The notes beneath the pieces are model-generated. The model was given only the letters and a program-made list of their open reading frames with translations. It was not told where the DNA came from and ran no database searches. A stretch of 64,000 nucleotides of DNA from an uncultured Verrucomicrobiota bacterium (GTDB lineage Bacteria > Verrucomicrobiota > Kiritimatiellia > CAIKKV01 > CAITUY01): contig CAZSSA010000001.1 in NCBI GenBank assembly GCA_964609375.1, forward strand, positions 7,694 through 71,693, written 5' to 3'. This document shows positions 3,433 through 62,135 of this stretch, in pieces. Every line of letters begins with the position of its first letter. Position 1 is the stretch's first letter. Position numbers and translations under genes: made by a program.

Positions 3433-5913
3433 TCAGGCGTTTACTTCAACCCCTGCCACAACCCGGAACGCCAACCCTCCATCGGCTTTCACAACCTCAA
3501 CTTTTTTGGCCCCATGTAAATCTCCCCTGAGAATCTCTTCGGCTAAAGGATCCTCCAAATAACGCTGCACGGCACGTCGAAGCGGACGAGCACCCATGGC
3601 CACATCAAACCCCTTGTCCAGCAGGAACTCCCGCGCGTCGGGGATCAGCACCAACTCGATCCCCTTGGCGGCCACACGTTTCTGGACCTTGGCCACTTCG
3701 AGTCCAAGGATCTTAATCGTATCATCCCTGGATAACTGGCGGAACACAACAATTTCATCCAACCGGTTGATGAATTCCGGCTTGAACATCCGCTTAACGT
3801 CCTCAAGCATCCTCTGCTTCAACATCTCATAATCCAGCGCTCCGCTGGTTTCCGTAAATCCCAATCCCGCTTTCCGACCGAAATCAGCGCCCAGGTTTGT
3901 AGTCAGAATAATCACCGTATTCCGGAAATCAATGGGACGCCCAAAGCTATCCGTCAACCGCCCTTCCTCCATAATCTGAAGGAGCATGTGCATCACATCC
4001 GGATGCGCCTTCTCAATCTCATCAAACAAAACCACGGAATAGGGACGGCGCCGAACCTTTTCCGTCAACTGCCCCCCCTCCTCGTAACCCACATATCCCG
4101 GCGGAGATCCCACCAACCGTGAAACGGTAAATTTCTCCATGTATTCGGACATATCAAGCTGGATCAGGGCATTCGGATCATCAAACATGAACTCCGCCAG
4201 CGCTTTCGCCAACAAGGTTTTCCCAACCCCCGTCGGTCCTAGAAAAACAAACGAACCGATCGGGCGCTTGGGGTCCTTCAGATCCGCACGCGACCTCCGA
4301 AGCGCTTTTGATATCGCCAAAATGGCAGGATCCTGCCCTACCACCGTCTTCCCAAGCTCCTCCTCCATCTGAAGAAGGCGGGCAAGCTCCTTGCCCTCCA
4401 TTTTTTTCAGGGGAACCCCCGTCCATTTGGACACAACGGCCATCACTTCTTCCGCTGTCACCTTAACTTTTTTCTTCTGGGACACTTCCCGCCACTTCTT
4501 CACGCTCTCTTCAAGCGCTTCACGTTCCCTGCGTTCCAAATCACGCAATTGAGCCGCATCTTCAAACTTCTGGGCTTTAATCGCCGCTTCTTTCTGAATC
4601 CGGATCTTCTCGATACCCTGTTCTTTCTTGCGCAGGTCGGGAGATCGGGTGGTCGCTTGAATCCGCGCACGGGACCCAGCCTCATCAATGGTATCAATAG
4701 CCTTGTCCGGAAGACGCCTCCCGGATAGATACCGGTCAGTCAACCGGGCCGCCGCTTCAATGGCATCATCAGTAATTTTGACCCCGTGATGCTCCTCGTA
4801 TTTATAACGAATACCTTTCAAAATCCGAATGGCTTCATCCACGGTCGGCTCATTGACCTGTACCGTCTGGAACCGCCGCTCCAATGCACTGTCTTTCTCA
4901 ATATGCTTGCGATACTCATCGAGCGTCGTTGCACCAATACATTGCAACTCCCCGCGCGCCAAGGCGGGCTTAATAATATTCGAGGCATCCATCGTACCCT
5001 CAGCCGACCCCGCCCCCACAATCGTATGCAATTCATCAACAAATAACATGACATTCCCAGACCGGCGTATCTCGTCCATGACCGCCTTAATTCTCTCCTC
5101 AAACTGTCCGCGATACTTGGTCCCTGCAATCATAAGGGCTAAATCCAACGCAATAACACGTTTATTCCTCAAGATATCAGGCACCAGCCCTTGCACGATC
5201 ACTTGGGCAAGACCCTCGGCAATGGCCGTCTTGCCAACCCCAGCTTCACCAAGCAAAACAGGATTGTTTTTGGTTCTACGGCAAAGGATCTGAATGACGC
5301 GCTCCAACTCAGGCTCTCGCCCAATCATCGGATCTAACGCTCCCTTTTTCGCCATTTCCGTTAAATCCCTCCCAAAAGCGTTTAAAGCGGGGGTCTTCTG
5401 CTTGGTGGCAGCCGGTGGCGTTTGCTTTGTCTTTGGCTCCGGAGTCTCGGATTCCTCTCCAGGCTCAAAATTCGGATCAAGCTCCTTCATGACTTCGACT
5501 CGCGTCGTGTCAACATCAACATTCAGCGCCCGTAATACTTGAGCGGCCACCCCTTCTCCTTCCCGCAACAACCCCAACAAGATATGCTCAGTCCCGATAT
5601 AGGAATGATTCAAGGTGCGAGCCTCAGTCGCCGCCAATTGCAGGACTTTTTTCGCACGGGGAGTAAAGGGAACGTTGCCGACTGTCTTGGTTTCCGGCCC
5701 CTGACCAACCAGTTTCTCCACCTCTAACCGCATGGACTCCAACGAGATACCCATGCGATCAAGCACCGTCACAGCCACCCCGGATCCCAGCGCCACCAAC
5801 CCGAGCAGAATATGCTCCGTCCCAACATAAGGATGGTTGAACCGTTCCGCCTCAGAGCGAGCCAGTTGAATAACCTGCTGGGCTCGCGGTGTATAATTTC
5901 CTGAATTTGCCAT
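3433..5913 (-). CDS. clpC: ATP-dependent Clp protease ATP-binding subunit ClpC
   Basis: 826 aa. Two Clp_N repeats at the N-terminus, two AAA+ modules ([30 protein letters not shown]), a UVR-like middle region and a ClpB-D2 small domain. Confidence 0.95.
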
Positions 5914-5934
5914 ATAAAAACCAATCCTTGCGGG

Positions 5935-6996
5935 TTAACCAACCAATGTAGCCCGCCTTACAACTTCTCTCACTCGCGCCGCCCGCAACTCATCCCGCTC
6001 CTCAGGCTTCACAAACTGCCCCGCCGATTTCTGCAAGTGACCGGGCTGCGAACACAGCGTTAACCGGTTAATATCCGCCATCTCCAATCCCTCAATCATA
6101 CCAAGATCAAATCCAAGGCGCAACCCGGAGAGCAAGTCCAGTGTTTCACGCGATGTCAACACCCTCGCATGACACAAGACACCATAGGCCCTTCCAACAA
6201 AATCCCGGATCCGGCTTTCCCGCTGCTCCATCAGCCGAATTCTGGCATTTCGCTCGTGATTGGCAATTTCATTCACAATTTGAGCGAGTCGCTCAATAAT
6301 AGCCGCTTCCGATTCACCCAATGTAGTCTGGTTCGAGACCTGAAACATATTCCCCGTCGCCTCCGTCCCCTCACCCAGAAGCCCCCGAACCATCAGACCA
6401 ATCTTGCTCAACCCCTTGATAATTGGCTCGATTTCATTCGCCAATCGCAATGCCGGCACATGCAACATCACACTAGCTCGGAGCCCTGTGCCTACATTCG
6501 TCGGACATGCCGTCAAATACCCAAGCCTCGGCGAAAACGCATAATGAACTTTCTCCTCAATTTCGGAGTCCATCATGTCAATTTCTCGCCATAGTTCATT
6601 AAGTAATAATCCCGGACGCATCGCTTGTAACCGAAGATGATCCTCCTCATTCACCATGACCCCAAGAATCTCGTCCGGCCGCACCACAAGGCAACTCCCC
6701 CGCGACTTCCGGACCAGTTCCATACTGATCAAATGCCGCTCATGAAGAAAATCCTTGTCCTGCAATGGGATATCCCCCATGTCAACACCCATGGCAGAAT
6801 CAAGCGATTTCACCGTTCCAAGAACGTCCTCCATCTGACGTTGAACCCGAAGACACTCCTCCTCGCCAGCCCAACCAGGAAAGGCAATGCCATGGAGATT
6901 CCTCGCCAACCGGATACGACTGCTGATAACAATCATATTACGCCCGTCTTCAGGCAACCATGAGCCGGGTTTACTTACTAAATCATCCAGCTTCAT
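5935..6996 (-). CDS. mcsB: Protein arginine kinase McsB (ATP:guanido phosphotransferase family)
   Basis: 353 aa. SSRIRLARNL, CPTNVGTGLRASVMLHVPAL and EATGNMFQVSNQ motifs of phosphagen-kinase-like McsB. Lies immediately upstream of clpC. Confidence 0.9.
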   Translation of the reverse strand: MKLDDLVSKPGSWLPEDGRNMIVISSRIRLARNLHGIAFPGWAGEEECLRVQRQMEDVLGTVKSLDSAMGVDMGDIPLQDKDFLHERHLISMELVRKSRGSCLVVRPDEILGVMVNEEDHLRLQAMRPGLLLNELWREIDMMDSEIEEKVHYAFSPRLGYLTACPTNVGTGLRASVMLHVPALRLANEIEPIIKGLSKIGLMVRGLLGEGTEATGNMFQVSNQTTLGESEAAIIERLAQIVNEIANHERNARIRLMEQRESRIRDFVGRAYGVLCHARVLTSRETLDLLSGLRLGFDLGMIEGLEMADINRLTLCSQPGHLQKSAGQFVKPEERDELRAARVREVVRRATLVG

Positions 6997-7474
6997 GCCC
7001 CGCCTCCCGAATCAAATCCCGCACTTGCGCCGCTCGCTCATAGTCTTCACACTTGATGGCATCATCAAGGTCTCCTTGAAGCTTCACCACCCTCGACTTC
7101 ACCCCCACCACTTGACGGACAGTCCTTGGAACCTTTCCTTTGTGTGTCACGCCTTTATGCATCGCCGCCAACATCGGTTTAAGGTCTTCACCAAACGACT
7201 CATAACAACGTTCACACCCAAGACGCCCCGTTTTTTTAAAATCCGTTCCCCGAAGGTGGCAGTAAGGACAACGGCGATTCAAGAACCCAGAAGCATCATC
7301 ACCACCCGCCAGTCCAAAAAGAATCTCCGGAATGGACATGACATTCTGAACATTCAGTCCGCTTTCCTCTGCGCACTCCTCGCATAAGTGCAATTCCCTG
7401 CTATTACCGTCAATCACTTGCGATACATGAATGGAGGCTTCACTCTGATGACAGCTATCACAAAGCATACTCAC
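6983..7474 (-). CDS. mcsA: McsA-like activator of McsB (Cys4 zinc fingers plus UvrB/C-like motif)
   Basis: CDSCHQ...LCEECAEE and RCPYC...CERC cysteine pairs, and a C-terminal DYERAAQVRDLI UVR-like motif. Overlaps mcsB by 14 nt. Confidence 0.75.
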   Translation of the reverse strand: MSMLCDSCHQSEASIHVSQVIDGNSRELHLCEECAEESGLNVQNVMSIPEILFGLAGGDDASGFLNRRCPYCHLRGTDFKKTGRLGCERCYESFGEDLKPMLAAMHKGVTHKGKVPRTVRQVVGVKSRVVKLQGDLDDAIKCEDYERAAQVRDLIREAGHEAG

Positions 7475-9285: not shown

Positions 9286-10542
9286 TTAATGCTTAAAGCA
9301 CCGTTGCCCGGTAAACACCATGGCAACATCCGCCTCATTACACGCCTCAATAACCTCAAAGTCCCGTTCAGACCCCCCGGGCTGAATAACCGCGGTAATC
9401 CCCTCGCGGATCCCCACCTCAACTCCATCGCGAAACGGGAAAAAGGCGTCCGATACCATGCATGCCCCTGTCAGACCACCTTTGCAGTCCGCCGTGTCTT
9501 TCTCAATGGCCACCTTCTTAACCTCATCCGTCAAAGCGCCATAAGGGACCCCATGGCGTGTCCAGCATAGTCGGTCGGCAAAGTTCCGATACGCCTTGTC
9601 ACGGGCGTACTGGGCCATGCCAACACGATCCTGACCGCCTGCTCCAATGCTGATAGTCACCCCATCCTTCACATACAGGACAGAATTGCTGGTCACGCCA
9701 CATTCAACCAACCAGCCAAACATCAAATCCTCATATTCCTTTTCCGTCGGCTGCCGTCCTATTTTGTACTCCCTGCCTTTGTAAGTGGCCTCAGCCTGGG
9801 TCAACCCCGAGACTGCTCGCGTCAAGGGAACAAACGACGTTTGAACAATCATGCCCCCGTCCACCAACGACTTTATATCAAGTGTGACCGCCCCTGCAAA
9901 CGCATGGAGCTTTGCCATATTTCCAATCCGCATCACCCGCAGGTTCTTCTTTTTTGAAAAAACATCCATGACCCCATCATTAAAATCTGGAGCCACAACA
10001 ACCTCAGCATAATTTTCAACAATGAGCCTCGCCGTATCAAGATCAACAGCCCTGTTGAGCGCAATAGCACCACCAAACGCAGCAACCCGATCTGCCATGT
10101 TCGCCTTACGGTACGCTTCAGCCAGTGAATCATCCCGCGCCGCACCACAAGGATTATTGTGCTTAACAATCACAGCACAGGGTTTATCCGTCAAATACCG
10201 CATGATGTTAAGGGCATTGTCTGCATCCGTGATATTCGTCTTGCCTGGATGCTTTCCGGACTGCAGTAATTCCACGTCCGAGGCAAGATAACGGCCCGGA
10301 TGGATGCACTGCACTTCACCTAGTGTAAGGTTGCCACCCGTCAGCTTAAACAGAGCGGCTTCCTGGCCGGGATTCTCTCCATAGCGCAATCCCTTGCGTA
10401 CATTATCAATCAGCCAAGAGACTTTTTCATAGGTCAGCGTCTGCCGTCGACCGTCCTCATCGATGAAGGCTATCTCCATGCGGGGCGGAAAATGATCATC
10501 CATGATGGTCTTATATGCCGACTTGAAATCTTGTGTAGCCAT
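9286..10542 (-). CDS. purH: AICAR transformylase-domain protein (PurH C-terminal domain only; no IMP cyclohydrolase/MGS domain)
   Basis: LRYGENPGQEAALF, CAVIVKHNNPCGAA, AFGGAIALNRAVD, DGGMIVQTSF and MVSDAFFPFRDG...VIQPGGSERD match the PurH AICARFT domain. Only 418 aa. Start at MATQDF with GGGAGAA 6 nt upstream. Confidence 0.8.
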   Translation of the reverse strand: MATQDFKSAYKTIMDDHFPPRMEIAFIDEDGRRQTLTYEKVSWLIDNVRKGLRYGENPGQEAALFKLTGGNLTLGEVQCIHPGRYLASDVELLQSGKHPGKTNITDADNALNIMRYLTDKPCAVIVKHNNPCGAARDDSLAEAYRKANMADRVAAFGGAIALNRAVDLDTARLIVENYAEVVVAPDFNDGVMDVFSKKKNLRVMRIGNMAKLHAFAGAVTLDIKSLVDGGMIVQTSFVPLTRAVSGLTQAEATYKGREYKIGRQPTEKEYEDLMFGWLVECGVTSNSVLYVKDGVTISIGAGGQDRVGMAQYARDKAYRNFADRLCWTRHGVPYGALTDEVKKVAIEKDTADCKGGLTGACMVSDAFFPFRDGVEVGIREGITAVIQPGGSERDFEVIEACNEADVAMVFTGQRCFKH

Positions 10543-10652
10543 GCCGATTCTCCCGTTATAAACAACCAAACAAGGCGCCCGACAAACACTACACCAGGCG
10601 CCCCTAACACGGTCGGCACAATACCCTACTTTCTCATCAGAAACAACAACAC

Positions 10653-11537
10653 TTACAACCTGTGCGCCCGCTTTGCAGACTCAACGGTGTTGTAAAGGAG
10701 CATTGTGATCGTCATGGGACCCACTCCACCGGGAACCGGAGTGATCATTCGTGCCTTTTCCTTGCAACCCTCAAAATCCACATCACCGACAAGCCGGAAG
10801 CCCTGCTTTTTGGTGGCATCTTCAACCCTGTTAACTCCAACATCAACCACCACGGCGCCATCCCGTATCATATCCGCTGTTACGGTATTGGGCCGCCCCA
10901 CCGCCGCAATCACAATATCAGCTTGCCTGGTAAGGGAGGCAATATCCTTGGTCCGCGTATGACATACCGTAACGGTCGCATTGGCATGCTTCCCTTTTGC
11001 GATCAGCATATTCGCCAAGGGTTTACCAACAATGTTGCTGCGGCCCACAATCACCACATGCGCCCCATCAATCTGAACTCCGCTGCGGGCGAGCATCTGC
11101 ACTACACCATGCGGCGTACAAGGCAAAAACGCTTTTTCCCCAATCACCATGCGTCCCACATTCATGGGATGAAATCCATCCACATCCTTATCCGGATCAA
11201 TGGCCAGAAGCACCTCCGACTCGTCTAGATGCTTCGGCAAAGGCAACTGCACGAGAATGCCGTTAATCTTCGGATCCGCATTCATTTTTTTAACCAATGC
11301 AATCAAATCCTGCTGACGGGTAGTCGCTGGTAGACGGTTGTCATCCGAAAAAATACCAATCTCGTGACACGCTTTTTCTTTGGCAGTCACGTAAGATCTT
11401 GAGGCCGGATCCTCGCCCACCAATATAACGCCAAGACCAGGCGTCACCCCCTGTGCTTTCATGCGCTGAACTTCAATCACCAATTCATCCCGAATCGCCT
11501 TGGCGATTTCTTTCCCGTCAATCACAGCAGCCGTCAT
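10653..11537 (-). CDS. folD: Bifunctional 5,10-methylene-THF dehydrogenase / methenyl-THF cyclohydrolase
   Basis: GLGVILVGEDPASRSYV, ILVQLPLP, DVDGFHP, GRSNIVGKP and PGGVGPMTI motifs. Start at MTAAVIDGKEI with GGGAGGG Shine-Dalgarno. Confidence 0.9.
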   Translation of the reverse strand: MTAAVIDGKEIAKAIRDELVIEVQRMKAQGVTPGLGVILVGEDPASRSYVTAKEKACHEIGIFSDDNRLPATTRQQDLIALVKKMNADPKINGILVQLPLPKHLDESEVLLAIDPDKDVDGFHPMNVGRMVIGEKAFLPCTPHGVVQMLARSGVQIDGAHVVIVGRSNIVGKPLANMLIAKGKHANATVTVCHTRTKDIASLTRQADIVIAAVGRPNTVTADMIRDGAVVVDVGVNRVEDATKKQGFRLVGDVDFEGCKEKARMITPVPGGVGPMTITMLLYNTVESAKRAHRL

Positions 11538-11590
11538 GAATTCCCTCCCGCCCATATGGATTAATTACCTAACGCACGGAACATGCAGAT

Positions 11591-12385
11591 TTAATTCCAA
11601 TGCCCTTTTAACAAAGGCAACTGTGTCTTATGCCCCACCATGGCCAGGTACATACCACAGCCGGCATAGGTTGTCTGCAACGCCTTGAGATTCGCCATCG
11701 GATCGTAAGGCACATCTTCTGGGATTGTGTACCCCACACATTCGGAAAGAAGGTGAAGTTTCTTTGACATCCAGCACTCGACAAACACTGGTATTCCGTG
11801 CTTCAGAAGACCCATCACCCGCTCATCCTTTCCAAGTACCGGTTGCGTACAGATAAACTGTGCGCCCGCTTCGATCTTGCGATGAAGCTTGTCCACTTCG
11901 TGGTCCTGTGGCTCATAGGGATTAAAAGCCACTCCCAGAGTGAACACACCAGGATAGGTCTTGTGAATATAGGCCACCAGTTCAACAGCAGTCACGGCAT
12001 TACATGATAATCCAATCGCTTGAGGTTGAAGCCGGGGCAACCGCTCGTTGCCATCGCCAGAAACAACAAGAATGTCTTTCGCACCCAGTGCAGCACACGT
12101 ATCCAGAATCTTATGCAAGTCATCCTTTGTGTGAAAGGTGTTCAAGTGAACAGAAAGTTGCCCGGGTTTGACCTCCAGCCCAAGCTCAGGAATGATATCC
12201 GTCGCCTGAAAACTCAAATGCCCCATCGGATTATCCGTAATACAGGCAACATGCCCCCCCTCCATCACCTGATTAAACTTGATCGCAAACTTCTCAAGAT
12301 CACCTTCTAAATCTTCGGTGCTCTGTTTCGGGGTCACGACCTCAATGTGGTAAACTTTATTTTTAATATCGTCATGAATCGCCAT
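11591..12385 (-). CDS. metF: Methylenetetrahydrofolate reductase family protein (short, MetF-like)
   Basis: 264 aa. DNPMG, ILVVSGDG, GVAFNPYEP and AGAQFICTQPV resemble the MetF TIM-barrel. Clustered with fhs and folD. Confidence 0.65.
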   Translation of the reverse strand: MAIHDDIKNKVYHIEVVTPKQSTEDLEGDLEKFAIKFNQVMEGGHVACITDNPMGHLSFQATDIIPELGLEVKPGQLSVHLNTFHTKDDLHKILDTCAALGAKDILVVSGDGNERLPRLQPQAIGLSCNAVTAVELVAYIHKTYPGVFTLGVAFNPYEPQDHEVDKLHRKIEAGAQFICTQPVLGKDERVMGLLKHGIPVFVECWMSKKLHLLSECVGYTIPEDVPYDPMANLKALQTTYAGCGMYLAMVGHKTQLPLLKGHWN

Positions 12386-12416: not shown

Positions 12417-14193
12417 TTAGAATAAACCGCGAACTCTCCCTGTCTTTACATCAATATCGATGTTGGTAAAGGCCGGTTCTGATGCCATTCCCGGCATTAG
12501 CTTGATATCCCCCGCCACCGGCACAACAAACCCGGCACCCCTGTAAACCAAGATATCGCGAATCGGCAACGTCCACCCTTTTGGCCGTCCTTTGACATCA
12601 GGCTCGTGCGAAAGGCTCAGATGCGTTTTGACCATACAGGTCCCTAATGCCGCCGTAGCCGGCTCCGACTCAAACCGCTTCGCCTTTTCAAGCGCCACAT
12701 CGCTATACGTCACACCATCCGCCCCGTAGATCTCCTTCGCAATCCGCTCAATGCGAACACGAAGTGGCGTGTCAAGGTCATAGAGAAACTTGAAGTTGTT
12801 TTTTTCAGCCGCCGCCGCCACGACCGTCTCCGCCAATTCTCGGGCACCCTCCCCGCCTTTGAGCCAATGCTGCGAAAGTGCAGCATACGCCCCATTGGCT
12901 TCGGCAACTTTACGAACTAAAGCCACTTCATTGGGCGTGTCAGTATGAAACCCATTGATGCACACCACTGGCCGCACGCCGCTCTTCTTGACAATCTCGA
13001 TATGCGCCGCAAGATTCTCACATCCCTTCTCAAGAAGACCGAGATTCTCGCGCGTGTAAGCTTCATCAAGCTTTGCCCCGGGCTTCACCGCTGGACCGCC
13101 ACCATGCATCTTGAGGGCCCGAATCGTGGCTACAATAACAACGGCACTCGGCTTGAGTCCCGAAACGCGGCACTTCAAGTTCCAGAATTTCTCAAACCCA
13201 ATGTCAGCGGCAAAACCACTCTCAGTAACATGGTACTCCGCTAGACGCGTGCCAATTTCATCGGCAATGATGGAACTCTGACCAATGGCGATATTGGCAA
13301 ACGGTCCGGCATGCACGAAGATCGGCTGCCCTTCGATCGTCTGGAGCAAATTCGGATTGATCGCATCCACGAGCCACGCCGCCATGGCGCCATCTACCTT
13401 TAGATCCGCTGTGGTAATTTCGTTCCCCTCCTTGTCGGAAGCGACGACCATCTTCGCCAAGCGCTCCCTTAAATCGCGCAGATCCTTGGCCACGGCGAGA
13501 ATTGCCATCACCTCGCTGCCAACCGAAATCTGGAACCCAGACTCCATCTCAAAACCATCCATCTTTCCGCCGCGACCGATGATGATGTTTCGCAGACTCT
13601 GGGCGCACAAATCAATACACCACTTGATCGCCACTCGCTTGGGATCAACATTAAGTCGCCGAATCCCCGTTCGAGCCAGCCGGGCATCATCGTAGTTGCG
13701 CTCATGCTGCATCCTTGACGTCAATGCAACCATGGCTAAGTTATGGGCATTAGTAATGGAGTCAATATCCCCCGTCAGGCGAATCGAAAAGGGAGCCAGA
13801 GGAATGCATTGCGCCAGCCCACCCCCGGCAGCAGACCCCTTAATATTAAATGTTGGCCCACCGCTCGGCTGGCGGATGGCTCCGATAACCGTTTTGCCAA
13901 TCTTCCCAAGCCCCTGAACCAACCCTATCGTGGTGGTAGTCTTTCCCTCCCCAAGGGGCGTCGGCGTAATGGCTGTAACATCAATGTACTTCCCGCACGG
14001 AAACTGATGTATACGCTCCATGACCATGCGTTGGTCCACCTTCGCCAAGTTCCGGCCCATGGGAATCACTTCATCAGGCAATAAGCCCATGTTTGAAGCC
14101 AAGACCGAAATCGGCTTCATGAAAGGCTCCGCGGCCTCCGCAATCTGCCAATCCTTCATCCGTGTCGGGTCCAGAATTACTCTATTCGTCATG
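12417..14193 (-). CDS. fhs: Formate--tetrahydrofolate ligase
   Basis: [33 protein letters not shown] and the FTHFS family signature throughout. Start at MTNRVILDP with GGAAGGA Shine-Dalgarno. Confidence 0.9.
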
Positions 14194-14246
14194 ATTCCAT
14201 CCTTCCTGCTTTCGCACTCACGATCCTCGGCTCGTAAAACCAACCG

Positions 14247-15269
14247 CTATTCGACTCCCAAACGGCCTTCCCGGTGCGCCGTAATGTATTCCACCCCGTA
14301 AAGATCTTCTCCGGTTAACAACGCCTTCGCTAATGCAAACGCCTCGGTGGTTGTATCCACCCCGGCGAGAATCTTGCTGTTCATCTGAAGCGGGTCCAGT
14401 ATCCCACTGTCAGCCCCTGCTTCCACCGCGAGCCATGTGAACACCTGATTAATGAGTTTTCTGCCCGGCATGCCAAAGGAGACATTACTCAAGCCGCCGG
14501 TGATATGAATGTCAGGACCATACTGCTTTCGAATGGCCGCCACCGCATCGATAAACCCCTTGGCATTATTTGAGTCCGTGGCCACTGGAAAAACCAATGG
14601 ATCAATGTAGACATCTCCACCACGAATCCCTGCGGCCTCCAACGCTGGCATCAACCGCGCAATATTCACCAACCGCTGTTCTGTGTCCGATGGTAGATCC
14701 TTCTCTCCTGCCGCCGAGGCAATAACCACGGCCTTAAATTCAGCCGCAACTCGAATCGAATCTTGCCGCTCTAATGACACGGAGTTAACCATTGGACGCC
14801 CACGCCCCATATCGCAGGCTTCAAGACCAGCACGCAATATCTCAGGGTTGGATGAATCGATACTTAGCGGCAATCGGCTTTTCCCTTGAACCACTTTCGC
14901 CACCCACCGAATCCCCCGGCACCGCTCCTGAATATCCGTACTAAACTCATCAACATTAATATCAAGAAACGATGCATCCGACGCCTCTTGGCGTTGCGCC
15001 AAATAGGAAAGGTAATCCGCCGCCGCCGATTTGCCATTGGCATCACCATACAATCCTTGCCACACGGCGACAGCACAATGCTTAACCTTGCCATTTTCCC
15101 AATCGGCTGTTTTAAGAAACGCATCGGGAATTGGCAAATACCGTGTATCCCCCTTCCCTCCATACACAATGGCGAACCCTCCCCCATCCGCAGGCTTGAC
15201 GAAATTTCCGCCAACTTTGTAAACACGGGTGCAATGGATATTCTCGCCAACAACAATCAGTTTTTTCAT
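14247..15269 (-). CDS. Pterin-binding domain protein (MetH folate-binding domain / MtrH/AcsE-like methyl-THF methyltransferase) with a ~60-aa insertion after the GENIH motif
   Basis: VVGENIH, LSIDSSNPE, NSVSLE, DPLVFP and GGLSNVSFGMPGR match the Pterin_bind barrel. AAGGGAG Shine-Dalgarno 8 nt upstream of the ATG. Confidence 0.75.
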   Translation of the reverse strand: MKKLIVVGENIHCTRVYKVGGNFVKPADGGGFAIVYGGKGDTRYLPIPDAFLKTADWENGKVKHCAVAVWQGLYGDANGKSAAADYLSYLAQRQEASDASFLDINVDEFSTDIQERCRGIRWVAKVVQGKSRLPLSIDSSNPEILRAGLEACDMGRGRPMVNSVSLERQDSIRVAAEFKAVVIASAAGEKDLPSDTEQRLVNIARLMPALEAAGIRGGDVYIDPLVFPVATDSNNAKGFIDAVAAIRKQYGPDIHITGGLSNVSFGMPGRKLINQVFTWLAVEAGADSGILDPLQMNSKILAGVDTTTEAFALAKALLTGEDLYGVEYITAHREGRLGVE

Positions 15270-15293: not shown

Positions 15294-16202
15294 TTACCGA
15301 TTTTTACTCTTAACATTTTGAAGCCGCTTCAACACAGATCCAATAGCCCGTATATGTTCAGGGGTAGTGCCGCAGCAACCACCTATAATCGATGCGCCTG
15401 CTTTAACCATGGCCGGAATCCACCCCGCTGACACTTCCGGGACTTCCGGAAACACATCCATTCCGTCTATATTCTTCGGCAGTCCGGCATTCGCCTGAAC
15501 CATGATCGGCACATCAGGAACGGCAACCCGTATCTCCCTCACTATCGCCACCATCTGCTCCATTCCCTGTCCACAGTTTGCACCCACAATATGCGCACCG
15601 GCGTCCACTGCCGCTCGCGCCGCGTCAGCCGGTGTCACGCCCATCATCGTATGGTAACCTCCGTCCGCCGTGTGCTGAAAGGTGAACGTGCATAGGATCT
15701 CTAGAGAGCCTTGCTCCTTTGCCGCCTTGACAGCCAAACAAGCCTCGTCAATTGCAGACATGGTCTCTATGCATACCGCATCCGCCCCTCCAGCCGCCAG
15801 GGCATCTATCTGCTCTTGAAACGCTTCATAAATCTCTTCCTCTGTGACATCGCCCATTAGAAGCATCTTACCTGTCGGTCCCACGGACGCAATAACATGC
15901 CGGTCGACGCCAGCCGCTTCACGGGAGATTGCCGCTGCAGCCCTGTTCAATTCCACCACCCGTCCCTGCAATCCAAAATACTCCAACTTGAACCGAGTCC
16001 CTCCGAAACTGTTTGTTTCAATCATGTCGCATCCTGCTTGAACATAGCGACACGCCACGTCCAATACTTCATCACGATGCTCAACGCACCACAATTCTGG
16101 ACACTCCCCTGGCTTGAGTCCCTTCTTCTGCAAAAAAGTCCCCCATGCTCCATCAGATAAAAGTAACTCGCCGGCTCTTACTCGCTGGGCTATCGGTTTC
16201 AC
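15294..16202 (-). CDS. Homocysteine S-methyltransferase domain protein (MetH Hcy-binding domain / MmuM-like, zinc thiol methyltransferase)
   Basis: LLLSDGAWGTFL, IETNSFG and IIGGCCGTTPEHIRAI are hallmark motifs. Start set to the GTG at 16202, which has a perfect AAGGAGG 7 nt upstream; the track ORF extends to a TTG at 16256. Confidence 0.8.
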   Translation of the reverse strand: MKPIAQRVRAGELLLSDGAWGTFLQKKGLKPGECPELWCVEHRDEVLDVACRYVQAGCDMIETNSFGGTRFKLEYFGLQGRVVELNRAAAAISREAAGVDRHVIASVGPTGKMLLMGDVTEEEIYEAFQEQIDALAAGGADAVCIETMSAIDEACLAVKAAKEQGSLEILCTFTFQHTADGGYHTMMGVTPADAARAAVDAGAHIVGANCGQGMEQMVAIVREIRVAVPDVPIMVQANAGLPKNIDGMDVFPEVPEVSAGWIPAMVKAGASIIGGCCGTTPEHIRAIGSVLKRLQNVKSKNR

Positions 16203-16260
16203 ACGCCATCCTCCTTCACCGAATAAATATGGACATTCTGCCTGTTTATATTCCAAAATA

Positions 16261-16298: not shown

Positions 16299-17690
16299 GT
16301 GAAATCCGCCTCTCAAAACAATAAGATTTCAGCTGTTCTTGATAATATCGGCAGAACCTCCGGACAAGGCGCTGTTTATCACGGGCTACATGATCAGACA
16401 ATGTTGCTCAACAACAGAGTCTGCTCCTTTTGCGTCCATGCCCTCAACCACGCGGTGTCAGCCCCCCTATGCCGTTACTCATGCTGCAATGCCACCGTTC
16501 ACGCCATGGCTTCTGGTGAACCCTATTTCTACCAATGCTGGGCAGGCCTCCTGTTTATAACGATCCCAGTTGCCCCCCAAAACCACTGTTCAGGGGGCAT
16601 AACCATGGGTGGATTTCACACCCCTGAGCAACATCAGGATATTCGCGATACAATCGAACAAGCACTTAAAACATGGCCGACAATTGATGCAAACCCTTTC
16701 CTTGCCAAACTGACCTCGCTCCATTCAATATCCACAAGCGCCCTGAGGGGCCTCGGTCACTTAGCCATGGAATCAACTTTTTCAAGTGGCTTAAACTCCA
16801 GCGGCTTCTTCCTCGCTCAAAATGAGAAGTACAACCAACAACGTCGCATCGCTGAAGCATTTGAAGACCTTCGCACACAGAATGTTTCCACATCGGACCT
16901 GTTGAGTGATGCCTACCAATTAGTCACCTTCCTGAGCCGCAATGATCGAACCAATGCCATGGAATTCGTTTCTCGCTATCTCGCCAAATTACTCATGGCC
17001 AGCAACTGGGATCTTATAAAATTGAAAGCCCACGTCCGGATATTATTAGCCGTAATCACAAGCCACGACATCTTAAATGGTATTCCTTGGGCGGTAGCCA
17101 CCAGTCGCGAGTTGCGACATATGGCAAGACTTGAACAGGCGTCAACCACCGAAGAAAGTTGCTATGAAGTATCTGAATGGATCCTTCAATATTTCCGAAA
17201 ACCTGAGCGCATTTTCATTGATGGCCGTCGTCTTGGCGATCGGATTCTGAGCTGGATGCAGGCGCATTATCAGGAAACAGTCACCCTGTCAGTCGCCTCA
17301 AAAGCAATCGGCGTGAGCACCTCAACCCTGGTCCATCGCCTACCCAGTGAAACGGGAAAAACATTCAAGCAGTTACTTCAGGAAATACGGATTACCGAGG
17401 CCAAGAAGCTTCTGGCAACCAGCGCTTTGGACATCAGCACTGTGGCAGAAAACTGCGGATTCTTTGACCAGAGTCACTTCACCCACGAGTTCAAACGAGC
17501 CATCAGCATCACGCCAGGACAATTCCGCAAGTTACTCGCTATTCCGGAAATTGCCCTGCGGACTCCTAATACCATCAGCCTTGACGAACCCTTCATCTCA
17601 ACACGCGCACTTGACAAAAAGACGTCGGGTCGGAAATCCACCTGTCGCCGTGATAAGCACCCCCGCCATTCCCGGAAAGCATCACCATAA
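16299..17690 (+). CDS. AraC-family transcriptional regulator with an N-terminal PocR-like sensor domain
   Basis: The C-terminal region has the AraC helix-turn-helix (VSTSTLVHRL...ENCGFFDQSHFTHEFKRAISITPGQFRK). The N-terminus has a Cys/His-rich PocR-like segment (FCVHALNH...CRYSCCNATVH...YFYQCWAGLL). Start uncertain: GTG at 16299 or ATG at 16401. Confidence 0.75.
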   Translation: MKSASQNNKISAVLDNIGRTSGQGAVYHGLHDQTMLLNNRVCSFCVHALNHAVSAPLCRYSCCNATVHAMASGEPYFYQCWAGLLFITIPVAPQNHCSGGITMGGFHTPEQHQDIRDTIEQALKTWPTIDANPFLAKLTSLHSISTSALRGLGHLAMESTFSSGLNSSGFFLAQNEKYNQQRRIAEAFEDLRTQNVSTSDLLSDAYQLVTFLSRNDRTNAMEFVSRYLAKLLMASNWDLIKLKAHVRILLAVITSHDILNGIPWAVATSRELRHMARLEQASTTEESCYEVSEWILQYFRKPERIFIDGRRLGDRILSWMQAHYQETVTLSVASKAIGVSTSTLVHRLPSETGKTFKQLLQEIRITEAKKLLATSALDISTVAENCGFFDQSHFTHEFKRAISITPGQFRKLLAIPEIALRTPNTISLDEPFISTRALDKKTSGRKSTCRRDKHPRHSRKASP

Positions 17691-29790: not shown

Positions 29791-30312
29791 CTACTCCTTC
29801 GAGCCGGTCGCCACTACCACCCGGTCTTTACTCCCGGGAAAATCCCGACCCGTCCGCTCAATCACTGCACCGGCGACCATCGGACGAACATCCACAATCC
29901 TGAGCCTGGCCACCACCCTCTCTCCCCGCATCACCGCCAACCGCATCCCCGGTCGCAACCCCTGCCGCCTCCCAGCGCTTAATACGGCCAGCCCCAGGTC
30001 CTCATTTACTTCCAAAATGCTGCATTCTTGTCCCTCGCGAATAACGTCACCCTCTGACGTTTTCGATCCCTGCCCCCCTGCTATCTCAACCGCATGCCTA
30101 TCCAACCTCGCCCGCAGCATGTCAACTTCAGCTCTGGCCACTGCCAGCGAATCCGCTAACCACTTCACCTGACTCTGCAACCTTGCCACTTCACCATCCG
30201 CTATCCCTGAAGCGGCAGAGACTCCACATACCATCGCCACTAGCCCCAATACCCACCCGGGACGCTTACCCTTACCCGGTCGGCAGCAACCGACTTGGCG
30301 ACTTATATTCAT
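29791..30312 (-). CDS. Hypothetical signal-anchored coiled-coil protein (173 aa) inserted between rpsS and rplV in the S10 operon
   Basis: ATG 5 nt after the rpsS stop and stop 10 nt before the rplV start; it exactly fills an otherwise unexplained 537-nt gap. Basic N-terminus, hydrophobic segment WVLGLVAMVCGVSAASG, then a coiled coil and a beta-rich C-terminal domain. Confidence 0.6.
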   Translation of the reverse strand: MNISRQVGCCRPGKGKRPGWVLGLVAMVCGVSAASGIADGEVARLQSQVKWLADSLAVARAEVDMLRARLDRHAVEIAGGQGSKTSEGDVIREGQECSILEVNEDLGLAVLSAGRRQGLRPGMRLAVMRGERVVARLRIVDVRPMVAGAVIERTGRDFPGSKDRVVVATGSKE

Positions 30313-51185: not shown

Positions 51186-54100
51186 TTGCATGCTCCTCTC
51201 TTCTCTACTCACAATCCTTTCGAGATAGCGCGAAGGCGAGCAATTCATTATTATACCAAGGTGAACAAACGTCTTCTATGGATCGTTACCGGATTAACCC
51301 TGTGGCTTATCATTGGACCCCAAAATCCTCTTTCGCGAGGCTCCAGACCAGCCACAGCTCCAACTGCCTCTCCTGCAAATCCACAAGCACTTCTTCCGCC
51401 TCCCCTCGGGATTTCCACAGCACCACCCACCCCCGCAATTCCCCCTCAGCATACATCATCTCCATTGCCTTCGCCCCCCGCCCGGCTCCCCCCTCCTGAT
51501 CCCGCCGCCCAAGGAATCACCCTCGCGTCCTCTTCCTATCCCGTCATGTCCTCATCCAATCTGTCCTGTATCACCAAAATCGTCCGGACAGACTTCAAAT
51601 ACCCTCTCCTGCGCATTGTCGAATGGCATCGCCAGGACAAACCAACCACTCCAGTCGTGGTCATGAGCCGCGACATCATGGTCGCCGACCACGTCATCAT
51701 CCGGACCCGCCCCAACATCACCGCGGCCAATCTCCAGGCACTCTGCACCCGCCACCACATCAGTATCCGCAAAACGCTCCGCTTACCCGGCTATTATCTT
51801 CTCGCCACCACAACCACCACCCCCGATTCCATCCCACGCCTGATCGCCAGCCTCTCCTCGGAAACCAATTCCATCCTCTTCGCCGAACCCGATCACATCC
51901 TTCACACCACACAAACCTTTCCCAATGACACAAGCTTCCCTACCCTCTGGGGCCTCCACAACACAGGCCAGTCCGGCGGCATCGCCGATGCCGATATCGA
52001 CGCCCCCGAAACCTGGGATATCACCACGGGCTCCCCCTCCGTCATCGTCGGCGTCATCGATTCCGGCGTGGATATCACCCATCCCGATCTCGCCTCGAAC
52101 ATCTGGGTCAACCCCTTGGAAAAACTCAACGGCATCGATGACGATGGCAACGGATACATCGATGACATCAACGGCTGGGACTTCCTCAGCGAAGACAACA
52201 ACCCCGCCGACGCCAACTCGCACGGCACCCACGTCGCCGGAACCATTGCCGCCATCGGCAACAACAGCCTGGGCATTGCCGGAATCACGTGGCAGTGCCG
52301 CATCATGCCTCTCCGATTTCTCGACGCCAACGGAAGCGGCTCCACGTCGGACGCCCTCGACGCGCTTCACTACGCCAACGATATGCGCAGACGTGGTGTC
52401 AATATCCGCCTGACCAGCAACAGTTGGGGCGGTGGCGGCGACCAGGCCCTTTCCAGCGCCATCAGGGAAAGCGGTGATGCCGGTCTCCTCTTCATCGCCG
52501 CCGCCGGAAATGCCGCCAATAATAACGACTACACCCCCTTCCTCCCCGCCAATTACCCCTGGTCCAACATCATCGCCGTGGCGTCAACGGATCGACGCGA
52601 CGCCCTTTCCAGTTTCTCCAACTACGGCGTTACATCCGTCGATCTCGCGGCACCCGGCTCGGAAATCTATAGCACCATCCCGGGCGGCTATGGCCTCAAA
52701 AACGGCACCTCAATGGCCACCCCGCACGTCTCCGGCGTCGCCGCCCTGCTCTGGAGTGAATGGCCCGATGCCGACTGGACCGAAATCCGCAACGCCATTC
52801 TCAACAGTGTCGATCACATCCCCTCCCTCACCGGAAAAACCGTCACCGGAGGTCGGCTGAACGCCTACAAAACCCTGGTCAACGCCTTCCATATCGCCCA
52901 CACCCCGCAACCGTACGACGTCAACTCCGGAACCCCCTATCCCATCACCGCCTCACTCACCCCTTCCTGCCTCGCTGATACCAATCAACTGTGGATCTTC
53001 TGGAACACCGACGGCTCCACCAACTTTACCTCAGCACCCCTCTCCCGCATCGGCACCAACCTTTATCAGGGTGACATCCCCTCCCAGCCGGAATGGACCA
53101 CCATCAACTACTGGCTCAAGGCAGGTTCCACCGTCGGAACCACCTCCACCCATCCCACCAACGCCCCGACCACCGTTCACCATTTCACCATCATGCCCTC
53201 CATCAATCTAACCGTCTCAGGATCCCCCGGTTCCCACGGATCCGTCACCCCGGCCTACGGAACACACACCTCCCCCTCAGGCCTCGTGATCTCAGCAAGC
53301 GCCTCCCTCCACAGCATTCCCGAAAACAACGCCCGCTGGGCCTGCCTCGGCTGGACCGGATCCGGCGGCACCCCCTCCTCGGGCACATCCAATTCCTTCA
53401 CTTTTGTACTGACAGAACCTTCCTCCATCAACTGGCTCTGGTCCCATGAATTCGCGCTGTCACAAAACTCATCCTTACCGGACGTCCAATTCACCACCAC
53501 CTGGTGGACTGCTTCCACCACAGGCGTCACCTTCACAGCCACCACAACCCTCTCCCTCAACGGCACCAATTACATCTTCGCCCATTGGCTGCTCGATGGC
53601 AACCGCCAACCCGATCCCTTCCAACCCGCTGTCAATCCTGTCTCAACTATTCCCATGACCCAACCTCATCAGGCCACCGCCATCTACCTGCCTGACCATC
53701 TTGATGCCGATAACGATGGAATGGACGACTGGTGGGAATACCACTACTTCGGCTCCACCAATACCGCCCCCGATTCCGACAACGACAACGACACCTTCTC
53801 CAACCTCGACGAGTTTCTCGACCGCACATCCCCTCACGACCGTGCCGACTTCCCCACCCCGCCCGTCCTCGAGCACACCCCTCTCCCCGACCCCCAGGAT
53901 CACCCTGCTCCATTTCCCGTGCAAGCCACCATCACCGATAACTACTCCATCGCCAATGTAACCCTTCAATGGTCAAAATCGGGGGACCCCACGCAATCCT
54001 CCGCCATGCTCACCACCGCAACCCCCGGTCTCTACCTCTCCGCACTCCCCCCGCCCGGAACCAACGGCGATGTCTTCACTTACCGGATCCTCGCCCGCGA

Positions 54101-56336
54101 CCCCCTCGGCCTTGTCGCCACCAACGGCCCTTATACCGTCCACGTCACTTACCCATTCCTTCACATCTCCCCACCCTCCCTGCATCAAATCGTGCACCCC
54201 CTCTCGAGTACCAACCGACCCCTCATCCTCGCCAACCTCGGCAACACCAACATGGTTGCCTCCATCAGCCTCATCCCGCCCGGCTACTCCAACACCTTCG
54301 ACGGCACCGTCACCGGATGGACCTCCTCCGGCACCGGAAATCTCTGGAACCTCTCCACCAACCGCTCCGCCTCCCCCCCCACCTCCTGGTACAATGGCGA
54401 CTCCTCCCTCGGCCTCTACACCAGCAACATGCACGCCTGCCTCGACACTCCTCCACTCTACCTCGGCTCCAACTCCTGGATGTCATTCACCCACTGGATC
54501 AACTCCGAACTCGATACCCGATATTGGATCGGCTGGCGCCCCATGCACGCCTGGGATGGCGGCATCATCGAAATATCCACCAACAGCGGACGCTCCTTTC
54601 ACCAAATCACTCCCGTCGGCGGCTATCCCTACTCCATCTCCGGCTGGGAGGAGTCCCCCTGGCCCGATGAAACACCCTGCTTCGCCGGCGACGGCATCTG
54701 GCGCCAGACCACCGTTGATCTCTCCCCCTTCGCCAACCACCTTGTCATCATCCGTTTCCATTTCGGATCCGATTCAAACACAGAAAGAGAAGGCTGGTAC
54801 ATTGACAACCTCGTTATCTCCCCCACCCCCGCCGTCGAACCCTGGCTCACATGGAGCACAACCAATCTGACCATTCCGCCCGCCTCCACCTCCACCGTTA
54901 ACGTCACCTTCACCAGTGGGTCCATCCCCACCGGCGACCGCGAAGCGGCACTCCTCGTCGCCTGTAATGACCCCACCGTACCCCTGACCCTCATTCCCCA
55001 ATACATGCGGGTCCGGTCCCACCCCATCCTCTCCTGGCTGGGCGCTTCCCAAACCTCAACCAATGGCGAAGGATGGGTAACCCTCTCCAACACCATCTAT
55101 GATGCCGATGGTGAACTCTGCAGCCTCGATCTCAACTGGACCACCAATGGCACCACATGGGCCAGCGCCTGGATACGCGCCGCCACCGCCGCCGCGGGAG
55201 CACCCTCTTCCCATTTTGCATCCACCCCCCAAGTCGACAACATCACAACCACCAATACTTCCTCCCCCTTCACCAACTCACTAGCCACCTCATGGGACAC
55301 CTCCCCCTCCGGAAACAACCTCGGATACTCAACCTCCACACGCATGCGCGCCCGCCTGTGGGACGGCCTGCTCTGGAGCCAATGGACCACCAGCCAACCC
55401 TTTACCGTCGATAACATCCCTCCTCCCCCCCCTGTCCGCTTCACCAACATGACCCACGCCATCAACACCTGGTCAACCAATCCCGTCATGACACTGGTCT
55501 GGCGCCGCATCACTGAACCCGGCCTCGCCGGCTATTCGTTCAGCGTCTGGACTAACACCCCCGGCGATGCCTTCACCTTTCCCTCCTCAGGCACCTCCGT
55601 CAACACCCCACCCCTCACCGACAGCCCCACCTGGTGGGCATCCGTCCAATCCCGCGACACCTACGGCAACCTCAGTTCCATGCTCACCCTCGGCCCCTTC
55701 AAAATCGATACCTCCCCTCCCTCTCCCTCCGGAGCCACCCTCACCCTCTCCCTCGACTCCTTCGGCTCCTACCTCATTGGCACCACCAACATCACCGCCT
55801 CATGGACCGGCTTCACCGACGCCGGTTCCGGCATCGCCTGCTACTTTTGCGCCCTCACCAACCGCTCGCCATCCACCAAGGGCCAAGTCACCCTTACCCC
55901 GTCCGCCACCCTAACCGGCCTCCTCCTTGACGCCACCAACACCTTCAACGTCTGGGCCATGGACAACGCCGGCCTCGTCGGTCCCGCCGCCAGCACCTCA
56001 TTCCTCGCCCTCAGCGCCAGCGGCGATTGGGATCACGATGGCATGATCAACTCCGCCGAAAACACCGCTGGCACCGACCCCGCTCACGCCGCCAGCCTGT
56101 TCCTCCTCGACCTTCAGACACCCCGCACCAATGGCATCATGATCCTCCGCTGGCCCTCATCCACCAATCGACTTTACACCCTCTCCCACAGTGATACCCT
56201 ACTCCCGCCCGGAACAAATTGGGCAACCATGACAAACTGGACAAGAGTCCCCGGCGTTGAGGGCAGCATGTCCTGCACCGATCAGGTACAGAACATCCCT
56301 GTCCGCTTCTACCGGATAACCGTGGAGAAACCATGA
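51186..56336 (+). CDS. Giant membrane-anchored/secreted subtilisin-family (S8) serine peptidase with a long beta-rich C-terminal extension and a C-terminal sorting-like module
   Basis: Catalytic triad motifs VGVIDSGVD (Asp codon 52058..52060), HGTHVAG (His 52221..52223), GTSMATPHVSG (Ser 52710..52712). I9-like propeptide, Pro-rich linker. Likely true start is the GTG at 51259, giving MNKRLLWIVTGLTLWLIIG. Confidence 0.85.
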   Translation: MHAPLFSTHNPFEIARRRAIHYYTKVNKRLLWIVTGLTLWLIIGPQNPLSRGSRPATAPTASPANPQALLPPPLGISTAPPTPAIPPQHTSSPLPSPPARLPPPDPAAQGITLASSSYPVMSSSNLSCITKIVRTDFKYPLLRIVEWHRQDKPTTPVVVMSRDIMVADHVIIRTRPNITAANLQALCTRHHISIRKTLRLPGYYLLATTTTTPDSIPRLIASLSSETNSILFAEPDHILHTTQTFPNDTSFPTLWGLHNTGQSGGIADADIDAPETWDITTGSPSVIVGVIDSGVDITHPDLASNIWVNPLEKLNGIDDDGNGYIDDINGWDFLSEDNNPADANSHGTHVAGTIAAIGNNSLGIAGITWQCRIMPLRFLDANGSGSTSDALDALHYANDMRRRGVNIRLTSNSWGGGGDQALSSAIRESGDAGLLFIAAAGNAANNNDYTPFLPANYPWSNIIAVASTDRRDALSSFSNYGVTSVDLAAPGSEIYSTIPGGYGLKNGTSMATPHVSGVAALLWSEWPDADWTEIRNAILNSVDHIPSLTGKTVTGGRLNAYKTLVNAFHIAHTPQPYDVNSGTPYPITASLTPSCLADTNQLWIFWNTDGSTNFTSAPLSRIGTNLYQGDIPSQPEWTTINYWLKAGSTVGTTSTHPTNAPTTVHHFTIMPSINLTVSGSPGSHGSVTPAYGTHTSPSGLVISASASLHSIPENNARWACLGWTGSGGTPSSGTSNSFTFVLTEPSSINWLWSHEFALSQNSSLPDVQFTTTWWTASTTGVTFTATTTLSLNGTNYIFAHWLLDGNRQPDPFQPAVNPVSTIPMTQPHQATAIYLPDHLDADNDGMDDWWEYHYFGSTNTAPDSDNDNDTFSNLDEFLDRTSPHDRADFPTPPVLEHTPLPDPQDHPAPFPVQATITDNYSIANVTLQWSKSGDPTQSSAMLTTATPGLYLSALPPPGTNGDVFTYRILARDPLGLVATNGPYTVHVTYPFLHISPPSLHQIVHPLSSTNRPLILANLGNTNMVASISLIPPGYSNTFDGTVTGWTSSGTGNLWNLSTNRSASPPTSWYNGDSSLGLYTSNMHACLDTPPLYLGSNSWMSFTHWINSELDTRYWIGWRPMHAWDGGIIEISTNSGRSFHQITPVGGYPYSISGWEESPWPDETPCFAGDGIWRQTTVDLSPFANHLVIIRFHFGSDSNTEREGWYIDNLVISPTPAVEPWLTWSTTNLTIPPASTSTVNVTFTSGSIPTGDREAALLVACNDPTVPLTLIPQYMRVRSHPILSWLGASQTSTNGEGWVTLSNTIYDADGELCSLDLNWTTNGTTWASAWIRAATAAAGAPSSHFASTPQVDNITTTNTSSPFTNSLATSWDTSPSGNNLGYSTSTRMRARLWDGLLWSQWTTSQPFTVDNIPPPPPVRFTNMTHAINTWSTNPVMTLVWRRITEPGLAGYSFSVWTNTPGDAFTFPSSGTSVNTPPLTDSPTWWASVQSRDTYGNLSSMLTLGPFKIDTSPPSPSGATLTLSLDSFGSYLIGTTNITASWTGFTDAGSGIACYFCALTNRSPSTKGQVTLTPSATLTGLLLDATNTFNVWAMDNAGLVGPAASTSFLALSASGDWDHDGMINSAENTAGTDPAHAASLFLLDLQTPRTNGIMILRWPSSTNRLYTLSHSDTLLPPGTNWATMTNWTRVPGVEGSMSCTDQVQNIPVRFYRITVEKP

Positions 56337-61169: not shown

Positions 61170-62135
61170 ATGATTCCGGAAGCCCGCATTAAAGCTGAAC
61201 TGAAACGCACCTTGGACTCCACCTCGTTCGAAGGCCTCGGCGAACGACACCAGGGAAAAGTCCGCGAAAGCTACATTCAAGGCGATCGCCGAATCCTGAT
61301 TACCACCGACCGGGTATCGGCATTCGACTGCATCATCGGCACCATTCCCTTCAAGGGGCAGGTCCTTAACCAGCTCGCCGCCTTCTGGTTCGAAAAGACA
61401 AAATCCATCGTCCCAAACCACATCGTCTCCATCCCCGATCCCTGCGTCATGGTTGTCCACGAATGCGAGCAGCTCCCCCTGGAGTTCATCGTCCGTGGTT
61501 ATATCACCGGCGTCACCAAAACCTCCGCCTGGTACAACTACGAACGCGGCGTCCGCCACTTCTGCGGCAACATGCTCGCCGAAGGCCTCCGCAAGGATCA
61601 AAAACTGGACCGGCCCATCCTCACCCCCACCACCAAGCACGAAAAACACGACCGCCCCATCTCTCGCGAGGAAGCCATCAAGGAAGGACTCATCGATGCG
61701 CGAACCTTTGATGACGCCGCGGATATTTGCTTCCATCTGTTCGACGCCGGCGTAAAACACGCCGCCTCACGCGGCTTGATCCTTGTGGATACCAAATATG
61801 AGCTCGGAAAACTCAACGGGAAATTGGTGGTTTCGGACGAAATCCACACCCCCGATTCCTCCCGGTACTGGTTCTCAGACACCTACGAGGAACTATTCGC
61901 CGCCCAAAAGGACCAGCGCAAGATCGACAAGGAATATGTCCGCGAATGGCTCGTTTCCCAAGGCTTCCGTGGCGATGGACAGCCACCCGCCCTGACCGAC
62001 GAAGTTCGCATCGAAGCCGCCAAGCGCTACATCCAAGCCTACGAAACCGTCACCGGCCTGGAATTCAAAATCAGCGACGAGCCCGCCGAGACAAGAATCA
62101 CCAATAACCTCCGCAAAGCCGGCTTATTGGCATAA
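61170..62135 (+). CDS. purC: Phosphoribosylaminoimidazole-succinocarboxamide synthase (SAICAR synthetase, long form)
   Basis: LGERHQGKVRESY, ILITTDRVSAFD and GLILVDTKYELG. Confidence 0.9.
   Translation: MIPEARIKAELKRTLDSTSFEGLGERHQGKVRESYIQGDRRILITTDRVSAFDCIIGTIPFKGQVLNQLAAFWFEKTKSIVPNHIVSIPDPCVMVVHECEQLPLEFIVRGYITGVTKTSAWYNYERGVRHFCGNMLAEGLRKDQKLDRPILTPTTKHEKHDRPISREEAIKEGLIDARTFDDAADICFHLFDAGVKHAASRGLILVDTKYELGKLNGKLVVSDEIHTPDSSRYWFSDTYEELFAAQKDQRKIDKEYVREWLVSQGFRGDGQPPALTDEVRIEAAKRYIQAYETVTGLEFKISDEPAETRITNNLRKAGLLA

Follow-up and report, generated by a model that had tools for sequence, protein, structure and literature searches.

The gene of interest occupies 9286..10542 on the minus strand of the window (the whole 64-kb stretch of DNA analysed), within an open reading frame spanning 9286..10569 (−) whose ATG at 10542 gives a product of 418 aa; a GGGAG Shine–Dalgarno-like motif lies 8 nt 5′ of this ATG. 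From Pfam matches, alignments and predicted fold we designate it purV, a stand-alone AICAR formyltransferase (AICARFT) gene equivalent to the C-terminal half of a split PurH. PF01808 was the sole Pfam domain of the translation (profile positions 75–311 of 311, residues 48–316, E 6e-60) and PF02142 (MGS) had no Pfam match in it, bearing out a preliminary description of this DNA that had read the gene as encoding an AICARFT-only protein of about 418 aa without an MGS domain. The AICARFT motifs quoted there were likewise all recovered from the translation: LRYGENPGQ (residues 52–60), VIVKHNNPCGAA (124–135), DGGMIVQ (228–234), SDAFFPFRDG and VIQPGGSERD. The identity of the window gene as an AICARFT-only PurH homologue is confirmed.

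Upstream of purV, on the same strand, lies a cluster of C1-folate genes. Beginning with the first gene of the cluster, these encode a homocysteine S-methyltransferase-domain protein (15294..16256, −; PF02574, E 2e-66), a pterin-binding, MeTr/MetH-Fol-like methyltransferase (14247..15269, −; PF00809, E 4e-21; NF005719, 186 bits, below cut-off), formate–tetrahydrofolate ligase (fhs; 12417..14243, −; PF01268, E 1e-225; NF010032, 1023 bits against a cut-off of 938), a short, 264-aa MetF-like methylene-THF reductase homologue (11591..12385, −; PF02219, 46 bits, partial model) and methylene-THF dehydrogenase/methenyl-THF cyclohydrolase (folD; 10653..11555, −; PF00763 and PF02882, with several NCBIfam FolD models). 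The predicted product of Fhs, 10-formyl-THF, is the co-substrate of PurV. The two methyltransferase domains of the cluster resemble the N-terminal half of MetH, and no corrinoid (B12-binding) protein gene was found in the cluster. Divergent from these genes is one for a PocR-sensor/AraC-type protein (16299..17690, +; PF10114 PocR with PF12833/PF00165), a candidate regulator of the C1 cluster. The other side of purV is occupied by a gene for a 488-aa secreted protein (+), then by mcsA-mcsB-clpC-ffh. The mcsA-mcsB-clpC genes (UVR-motif protein, protein arginine kinase and ClpC; 3433..7474, −), best known as a Gram-positive stress module, here lie beside ffh in a PVC-type bacterium.

Further along the window, purC (SAICAR synthetase; 61170..62135, +; PF01259, E 3e-61) stands alone, about 50 kb from purV. 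Its presence indicates that the organism has de novo purine genes, and its distance from purV that these are scattered in the genome. A ribosomal-protein operon includes a 173-aa ORF (29791..30312, −) with a signal-peptide-like N-terminus and no Pfam match, and a 1716-aa subtilase-family ORF (PF00082) extends over 51186..56336 (+); GC content rises from about 0.52 to 0.60–0.62 across 52–56 kb, over the latter ORF. Throughout the window GC skew is strongly negative, and the minus strand holds nearly all genes.

The motifs of window PurV align with their counterparts in PurH of M. tuberculosis and T. maritima (PDB sequences), the putative catalytic pair Lys127-His128 falling within VIVKHNNPCG. 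Across 40 homologues, K127/H128 (KHxNPCG), LRYGENP, SDAFFPF and QPGGS were invariant; the roles that we presume for K127/H128 and for the AICAR- and folate-binding residues are those of the ATIC literature. Against curated models the protein scored 239 bits for TIGR00355 purH (cut-off 528), 279 bits for NF002049 (cut-off 402) and 137 bits, in three fragments, for the 390-aa short AICARFT model NF005492 (cut-off 415), alignments to the NCBIfam purH models beginning at approximately model position 205–210. Since it falls below the cut-offs of all three purH-type models, no curated equivalog backs its function, and we know of no bacterial PurV of this subfamily that has been assayed. The short AICAR formyltransferases of NF005492/PRK07106 are also AICARFT-only, but form a separate lineage from window PurV; we take that family to be usually paired with PurO-type cyclohydrolases.

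Relative to canonical PurH/ATIC (TIGR00355, NF002049; PDB 3ZZM, 1ZCZ, 4EHI, 1G8M), window PurV has the same transformylase fold and catalytic motifs but lacks the N-terminal MGS domain and carries two extra insertions, one of about 20 aa and one helical. Residues 52–418 correspond to E. coli PurH 226–529 at 36% identity. Alignment with bacterial PurH, the check that the preliminary description had proposed for the domain boundary, places the gene break in the interdomain linker: in the multiple alignment HFPPRMEIAFI of window PurV matches the E. coli linker strand RFPRTLNLNFI, and the 20-aa insertion follows. The protein does not, however, begin directly in the transformylase domain, as had been stated, a conserved segment of around 50 residues coming before the catalytic core. 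The second insertion (about 33 aa, residues 318–350 or thereabouts) is not present in bacterial PurH, which for that reason aligns to window PurV in two pieces. An AlphaFold model of window PurV (pLDDT 75, pTM 0.76, with low confidence in the N-terminal 60 residues) found PurH/ATIC chains in all 21 of its best PDB matches (E 1e-26 to 1e-20, TM about 0.6–0.66). On the alignment, the proposed fission point would have the cyclohydrolase protein, PurJ, ending after the AAYDxxIxxY helix and PurV beginning just ahead of the FPxxhxhxF strand.

NCBI and JGI annotation pipelines give such proteins the bifunctional name or ‘IMP cyclohydrolase’, as might suit a purH that had been truncated, whether as a pseudogene, by a frameshift or through an assembly artefact. 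That reading has a negligible chance of being correct and is ruled out by conservation data. A search of 5.8 billion proteins returned at least 120 homologues at 70–100% identity, 109 of the 120 listed being 417–418 aa long, and the recurrence of this length in more than 100 independent assemblies also disposes of the frameshift that the preliminary description had named as a possible undoing of its own reading. Residues 1–51 are conserved among the homologues, and a separate purJ gene is conserved too. Nor does the DNA upstream hold the in-frame MGS extension raised in the same description: the nearest upstream stop in the purV frame is a TGA at 10683..10681, within the 3′ end of folD, and with folD filling 10653..11555 in another frame no in-frame N-terminal domain is possible there. 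Window PurV is neither a chance ORF nor a truncation.

A survey of 1,403 complete genomes (Cruz et al. 2019, Genome Biol Evol, PMC6486802) gave the name purV to the stand-alone AICARFT gene and purJ to the stand-alone IMP cyclohydrolase (IMPCH) gene; PurH1/PurH2 is an alternative naming (Brown et al. 2011; Hunter et al. 2019, PMC6797443). The two genes occurred together in 44 of 1,266 bacterial genomes (about 3%) from several phyla, replacing purH and anticorrelating with it (PMC6486802), so the split is not mainly archaeal, as the preliminary description had supposed. The pattern was found in all eight Desulfobacterales analysed and in all examined Desulfovibrionales, Thermodesulfobacteria, Prevotellaceae and Fervidobacteriaceae; the main text of the survey names no PVC phyla (PMC6486802). 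In that survey 63% of purV/purJ genes were not beside other pur genes, the commonest pur-gene neighbours being purD and purN (PMC6486802). For a PurH2-type IMPCH that is unfused in nature, both activity and complementation of E. coli have been demonstrated (Hunter et al. 2019, PMC6797443). Like these systems, the window gene encodes a stand-alone AICARFT, presumably acting with a separate MGS-type IMPCH in place of bifunctional PurH, and it is a further case of the bacterial purV/purJ split described in 2019, in a PVC lineage; it differs in being unlinked from purJ and placed behind fhs-metF-folD rather than near purD or purN. Archaeal PurV-N/PurO (Halobacteria) and PurP/PurO also divide the last two purine steps between separate polypeptides, but these have PurO as the partner or use PurP, which depends on formate and ATP, as the transformylase; neither PurO nor PurP was seen among the window ORFs scanned.

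A chimeric query, composed of a PurJ consensus and window PurV residues 1–234, was run against 185,579 species genomes and yielded 597 confirmed stretches, the best 80 of which were taken into ORF analysis. In one Verrucomicrobiota-labelled MAG (loci L007/L008), whose PurV is 73% identical to that of the window, a 228-aa PurJ gene lies directly upstream of purV. This PurJ consists of PF02142 (MGS) plus PF01808 positions 1–59 and, as window PurV covers positions 75–311 of the latter, the two proteins tile the PurH model; residues 15–212 of PurJ correspond to E. coli PurH 7–194 at 45% identity. The 228-aa protein keeps VKTL, NLYPF, NIDIGGP and AAKN, which we take, again from the ATIC literature, to be cyclohydrolase-site motifs. 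The PurJ family has at least 120 members of 224–254 aa, those named by taxon coming from Kiritimatiellota, Lentisphaerae and Verrucomicrobiota MAGs. Two PVC MAGs carry purJ and purV on different contigs: JAPLSY01 (purJ in L035, purV in L040) and JAQBFJ01 (purJ in L065, purV in L039). The expectation in the preliminary description that the cyclohydrolase would be supplied by another gene agrees with the finding of the PurJ family beside relatives’ purV or in the same MAG. In one PVC lineage (L009/L010, 8001–10760) an unlinked purJ sits between a TsaD-family gene (PF00814) and genes for PTPS (QueD-like), radical-SAM and QueC proteins, suggestive of 7-deazaguanine (queuosine precursor) synthesis, another purine-derived pathway.

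Within the 64-kb window, tblastn with PurJ gave chance matches only, no second purH was found, and Pfam scans of 17 window ORFs detected no PurO (PF07826-type) or MGS domain. A window without purJ leaves some room for a different partner, a PurO-type or still unknown IMP cyclohydrolase, alongside a correctly identified transformylase. The purV/purO combination does exist, in 19 bacterial genomes (PMC6486802), and the nearest MAGs (CAZDUS01, CAYWKN01 and CAMBRF01) had no purJ locus among the best 80 of 597, although this absence carries little weight because the best 80 favour longer matches. Many Kiritimatiellota, Lentisphaerae and Verrucomicrobiota MAGs, however, carry PurJ, which co-occurs with the window PurV subfamily wherever both are visible, and the window ORFs scanned include no PF07826-type protein. 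We consider a partner other than PurJ highly improbable; PurO, which the preliminary description had listed among the genes to look for, is not likely, since relatives carry PurJ.

Among the best 80 of 597 loci, at least about 55 outside the PVC group (Desulfobacterota, Anaerolineae, Spirochaetota and Myxococcota) held purJ and purV as neighbouring but distinct genes. Spacers between them ranged from −11 to 458 nt and included all three relative frames, identifying them as separate genes, and a Shine–Dalgarno-like sequence often lay inside the end of purJ. The PVC loci among these 80 had only one of purJ and purV within 10 kb. In the flanks of purJ-purV from one Desulfosarcinaceae and one Spirochaetia genome, no other pur genes were found beside the pair. 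Two apparent fusions were rejected: a PurJ-PurV ORF in L031, in which the two halves are joined only by X residues translated from masked N, and a long PurH in Desulfobacterota suggested by ‘1-461’ scan matches, which ORF analysis resolved into two genes with stops and variable spacers and frames. MshEN-domain genes lie 1–3 kb upstream of purV/purJ in different phyla (L001, 4816–5709; L005, 6200–7099; L013, 5432–8065), which may be chance.

The closest PurV match among the best 80 of 597 stretches was 85% identical (L032), and the purJ-adjacent purV of present-day Desulfobacterales MAGs matched window PurV over its full length at 60–70% identity. A neighbour-joining tree placed the PVC PurV cluster beside the Desulfobacterota cluster, with all of these distant from the E. 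coli C-domain. In a set of 1.84 billion proteins reduced to 50%-identity representatives, the full-length best matches were mostly stand-alone proteins of 403–431 aa, and canonical PurH (500–540 aa) entered the match list only from about 200 bits. Two relatives belonging to the PurV lineage are fused (P0261, 600 aa; P0297, 550 aa).

The C1-folate context of purV is recurrent but lineage-specific. The whole order, comprising regulator, C1 genes, purV, secreted protein and mcsA-mcsB-clpC-ffh, is kept in L032–L034, the PocR/AraC gene included, and partly in L003/L004 (PurV 80–85% identical). L005 and L001 (PurV 77–80% identical) have no C1 genes upstream, L005 retaining mcsA-clpC downstream. The Latescibacterota locus L036 and locus L041, from a Verrucomicrobiota single-cell genome, also have Fhs-FolD-PurV, and a spirochaete (L037) has the order FolD-PurJ-PurV; linkage to folD or fhs was absent from all Desulfobacterota loci examined. 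The same folD/fhs linkage arose independently in the Latescibacterota/Verrucomicrobiota branch and in the spirochaete. The preliminary description had taken the placement of purV to mean that its product is the dedicated formyl acceptor of the operon: co-regulation with formyl-THF supply is plausible, but with linkage confined to certain lineages ‘dedicated’ overstates the case. As separate observations, the mcsA-mcsB-clpC module keeps its place downstream of purV in L003, L005, L032 and L034, and in L036 (2135–2812) a 225-aa ORF lies between folD and purV.

The spacer between folD and purV (10543..10652, −; 110 nt) is the longest of the cluster. It contains a GC-rich hairpin at 10604..10572 (−), GGGGCGCC...GGGCGCC, followed by GTTTGGTTGT. 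The U-tract is poor, and the hairpin could act as a weak terminator, as an attenuator or in mRNA stability. This was the best terminator-like site in a scan of the region, although such sites were no more numerous overall than in shuffled sequence; the spacer had a fold z-score of −0.97. L032 keeps the hairpin, L003/L004 have an altered form of it, and L034, with a spacer of about 20 nt, lacks it. Given the shuffle-level count, this z-score and the poor conservation, we make no claim for the hairpin as a functional element. An Rfam scan of the whole window at gathering thresholds returned three tRNAs only, with no ZTP or other riboswitch. A 110-nt spacer containing a hairpin makes co-transcription of purV with folD uncertain.

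The position of purV, unlinked from purJ and behind fhs-metF-folD under a possible PocR/AraC regulator, could be that of a specialised paralogue in a genome that also has a canonical purH or a purJ-adjacent purV. Such a protein might serve folate/ZMP homeostasis, for example by consuming ZMP when formyl-THF is supplied or by catalysing the reverse reaction, from FAICAR to formyl-THF. In its favour, FolD or Fhs linkage appeared separately in three parts of the PurV tree, and 17 bacterial genomes have both purH and purV (PMC6486802). Against it, window PurV has no long branch of its own and groups with PVC purV including the purJ-adjacent L007; its catalytic and binding motifs are all invariant; relatives at 77–80% identity lack the C1 context; and each PVC MAG showed a single purV locus among the best 80 of 597. 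A specialised paralogue is accordingly improbable. Somewhat less doubtful, though still unlikely, is that purV became detached from purJ and was captured by a PocR/AraC-controlled fhs-metF-folD cluster, making formyl-THF output and the use of ZMP (AICAR) one regulated unit. Were this so, the captured purV would be a protein-regulator counterpart of the ZTP riboswitches found elsewhere, and PurV might, in addition to its part in purine synthesis, buffer ZMP and formyl-THF.

The window gene is best read as that of an ordinary purine-pathway transformylase now located behind C1-folate genes. Judged from sequence, its product is very probably a housekeeping AICAR transformylase with 10-formyl-THF as co-substrate, acting alongside an IMP-forming PurJ from a separate gene. 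PurV would transfer the formyl group from 10-formyl-THF to AICAR (ZMP), giving FAICAR, and is probably a homodimer by analogy with solved PurH/ATIC structures; a PurJ of about 227 aa, an MGS-fold IMP cyclohydrolase presumably encoded outside the 64-kb window, would then close the ring to IMP. In PurH the equilibrium of the transformylase reaction is unfavourable and is drawn forward by the cyclohydrolase step, and the two activities do not channel their intermediate. The PurJ step would be expected to exert the same pull. In the PVC clade of the window (Kiritimatiellota or relatives) purV would have parted from purJ and come to lie downstream of fhs-metF-folD, a position in which it is probably expressed with the enzymes making its folate co-substrate. 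We infer the enzymatic activity, the dimer, a purJ in the window’s own genome and co-transcription with folD from these comparisons.

Annotation of the two halves is at present misleading. NCBI names the transformylase-only proteins P0056, P0067, P0072, P0092 and P0120 ‘IMP cyclohydrolase’, and the cyclohydrolase-only proteins P0143, P0148, P0154 and P0158 ‘hypothetical protein’; with such names, metabolic reconstructions based on Kiritimatiellota and Lentisphaerota MAGs can score the final two steps of purine synthesis wrongly. The locus extends the published purV/purJ split to PVC phyla, and one PurV subfamily, characterised by a length of about 418 aa, the N-terminal segment and the helical insertion, is common to Desulfobacterota, Anaerolineae, Spirochaetota and PVC bacteria. 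That purV lies behind folD/fhs in several lineages hints that AICAR formylation is co-regulated with formyl-THF supply, which would be no surprise for a folate-dependent enzyme.
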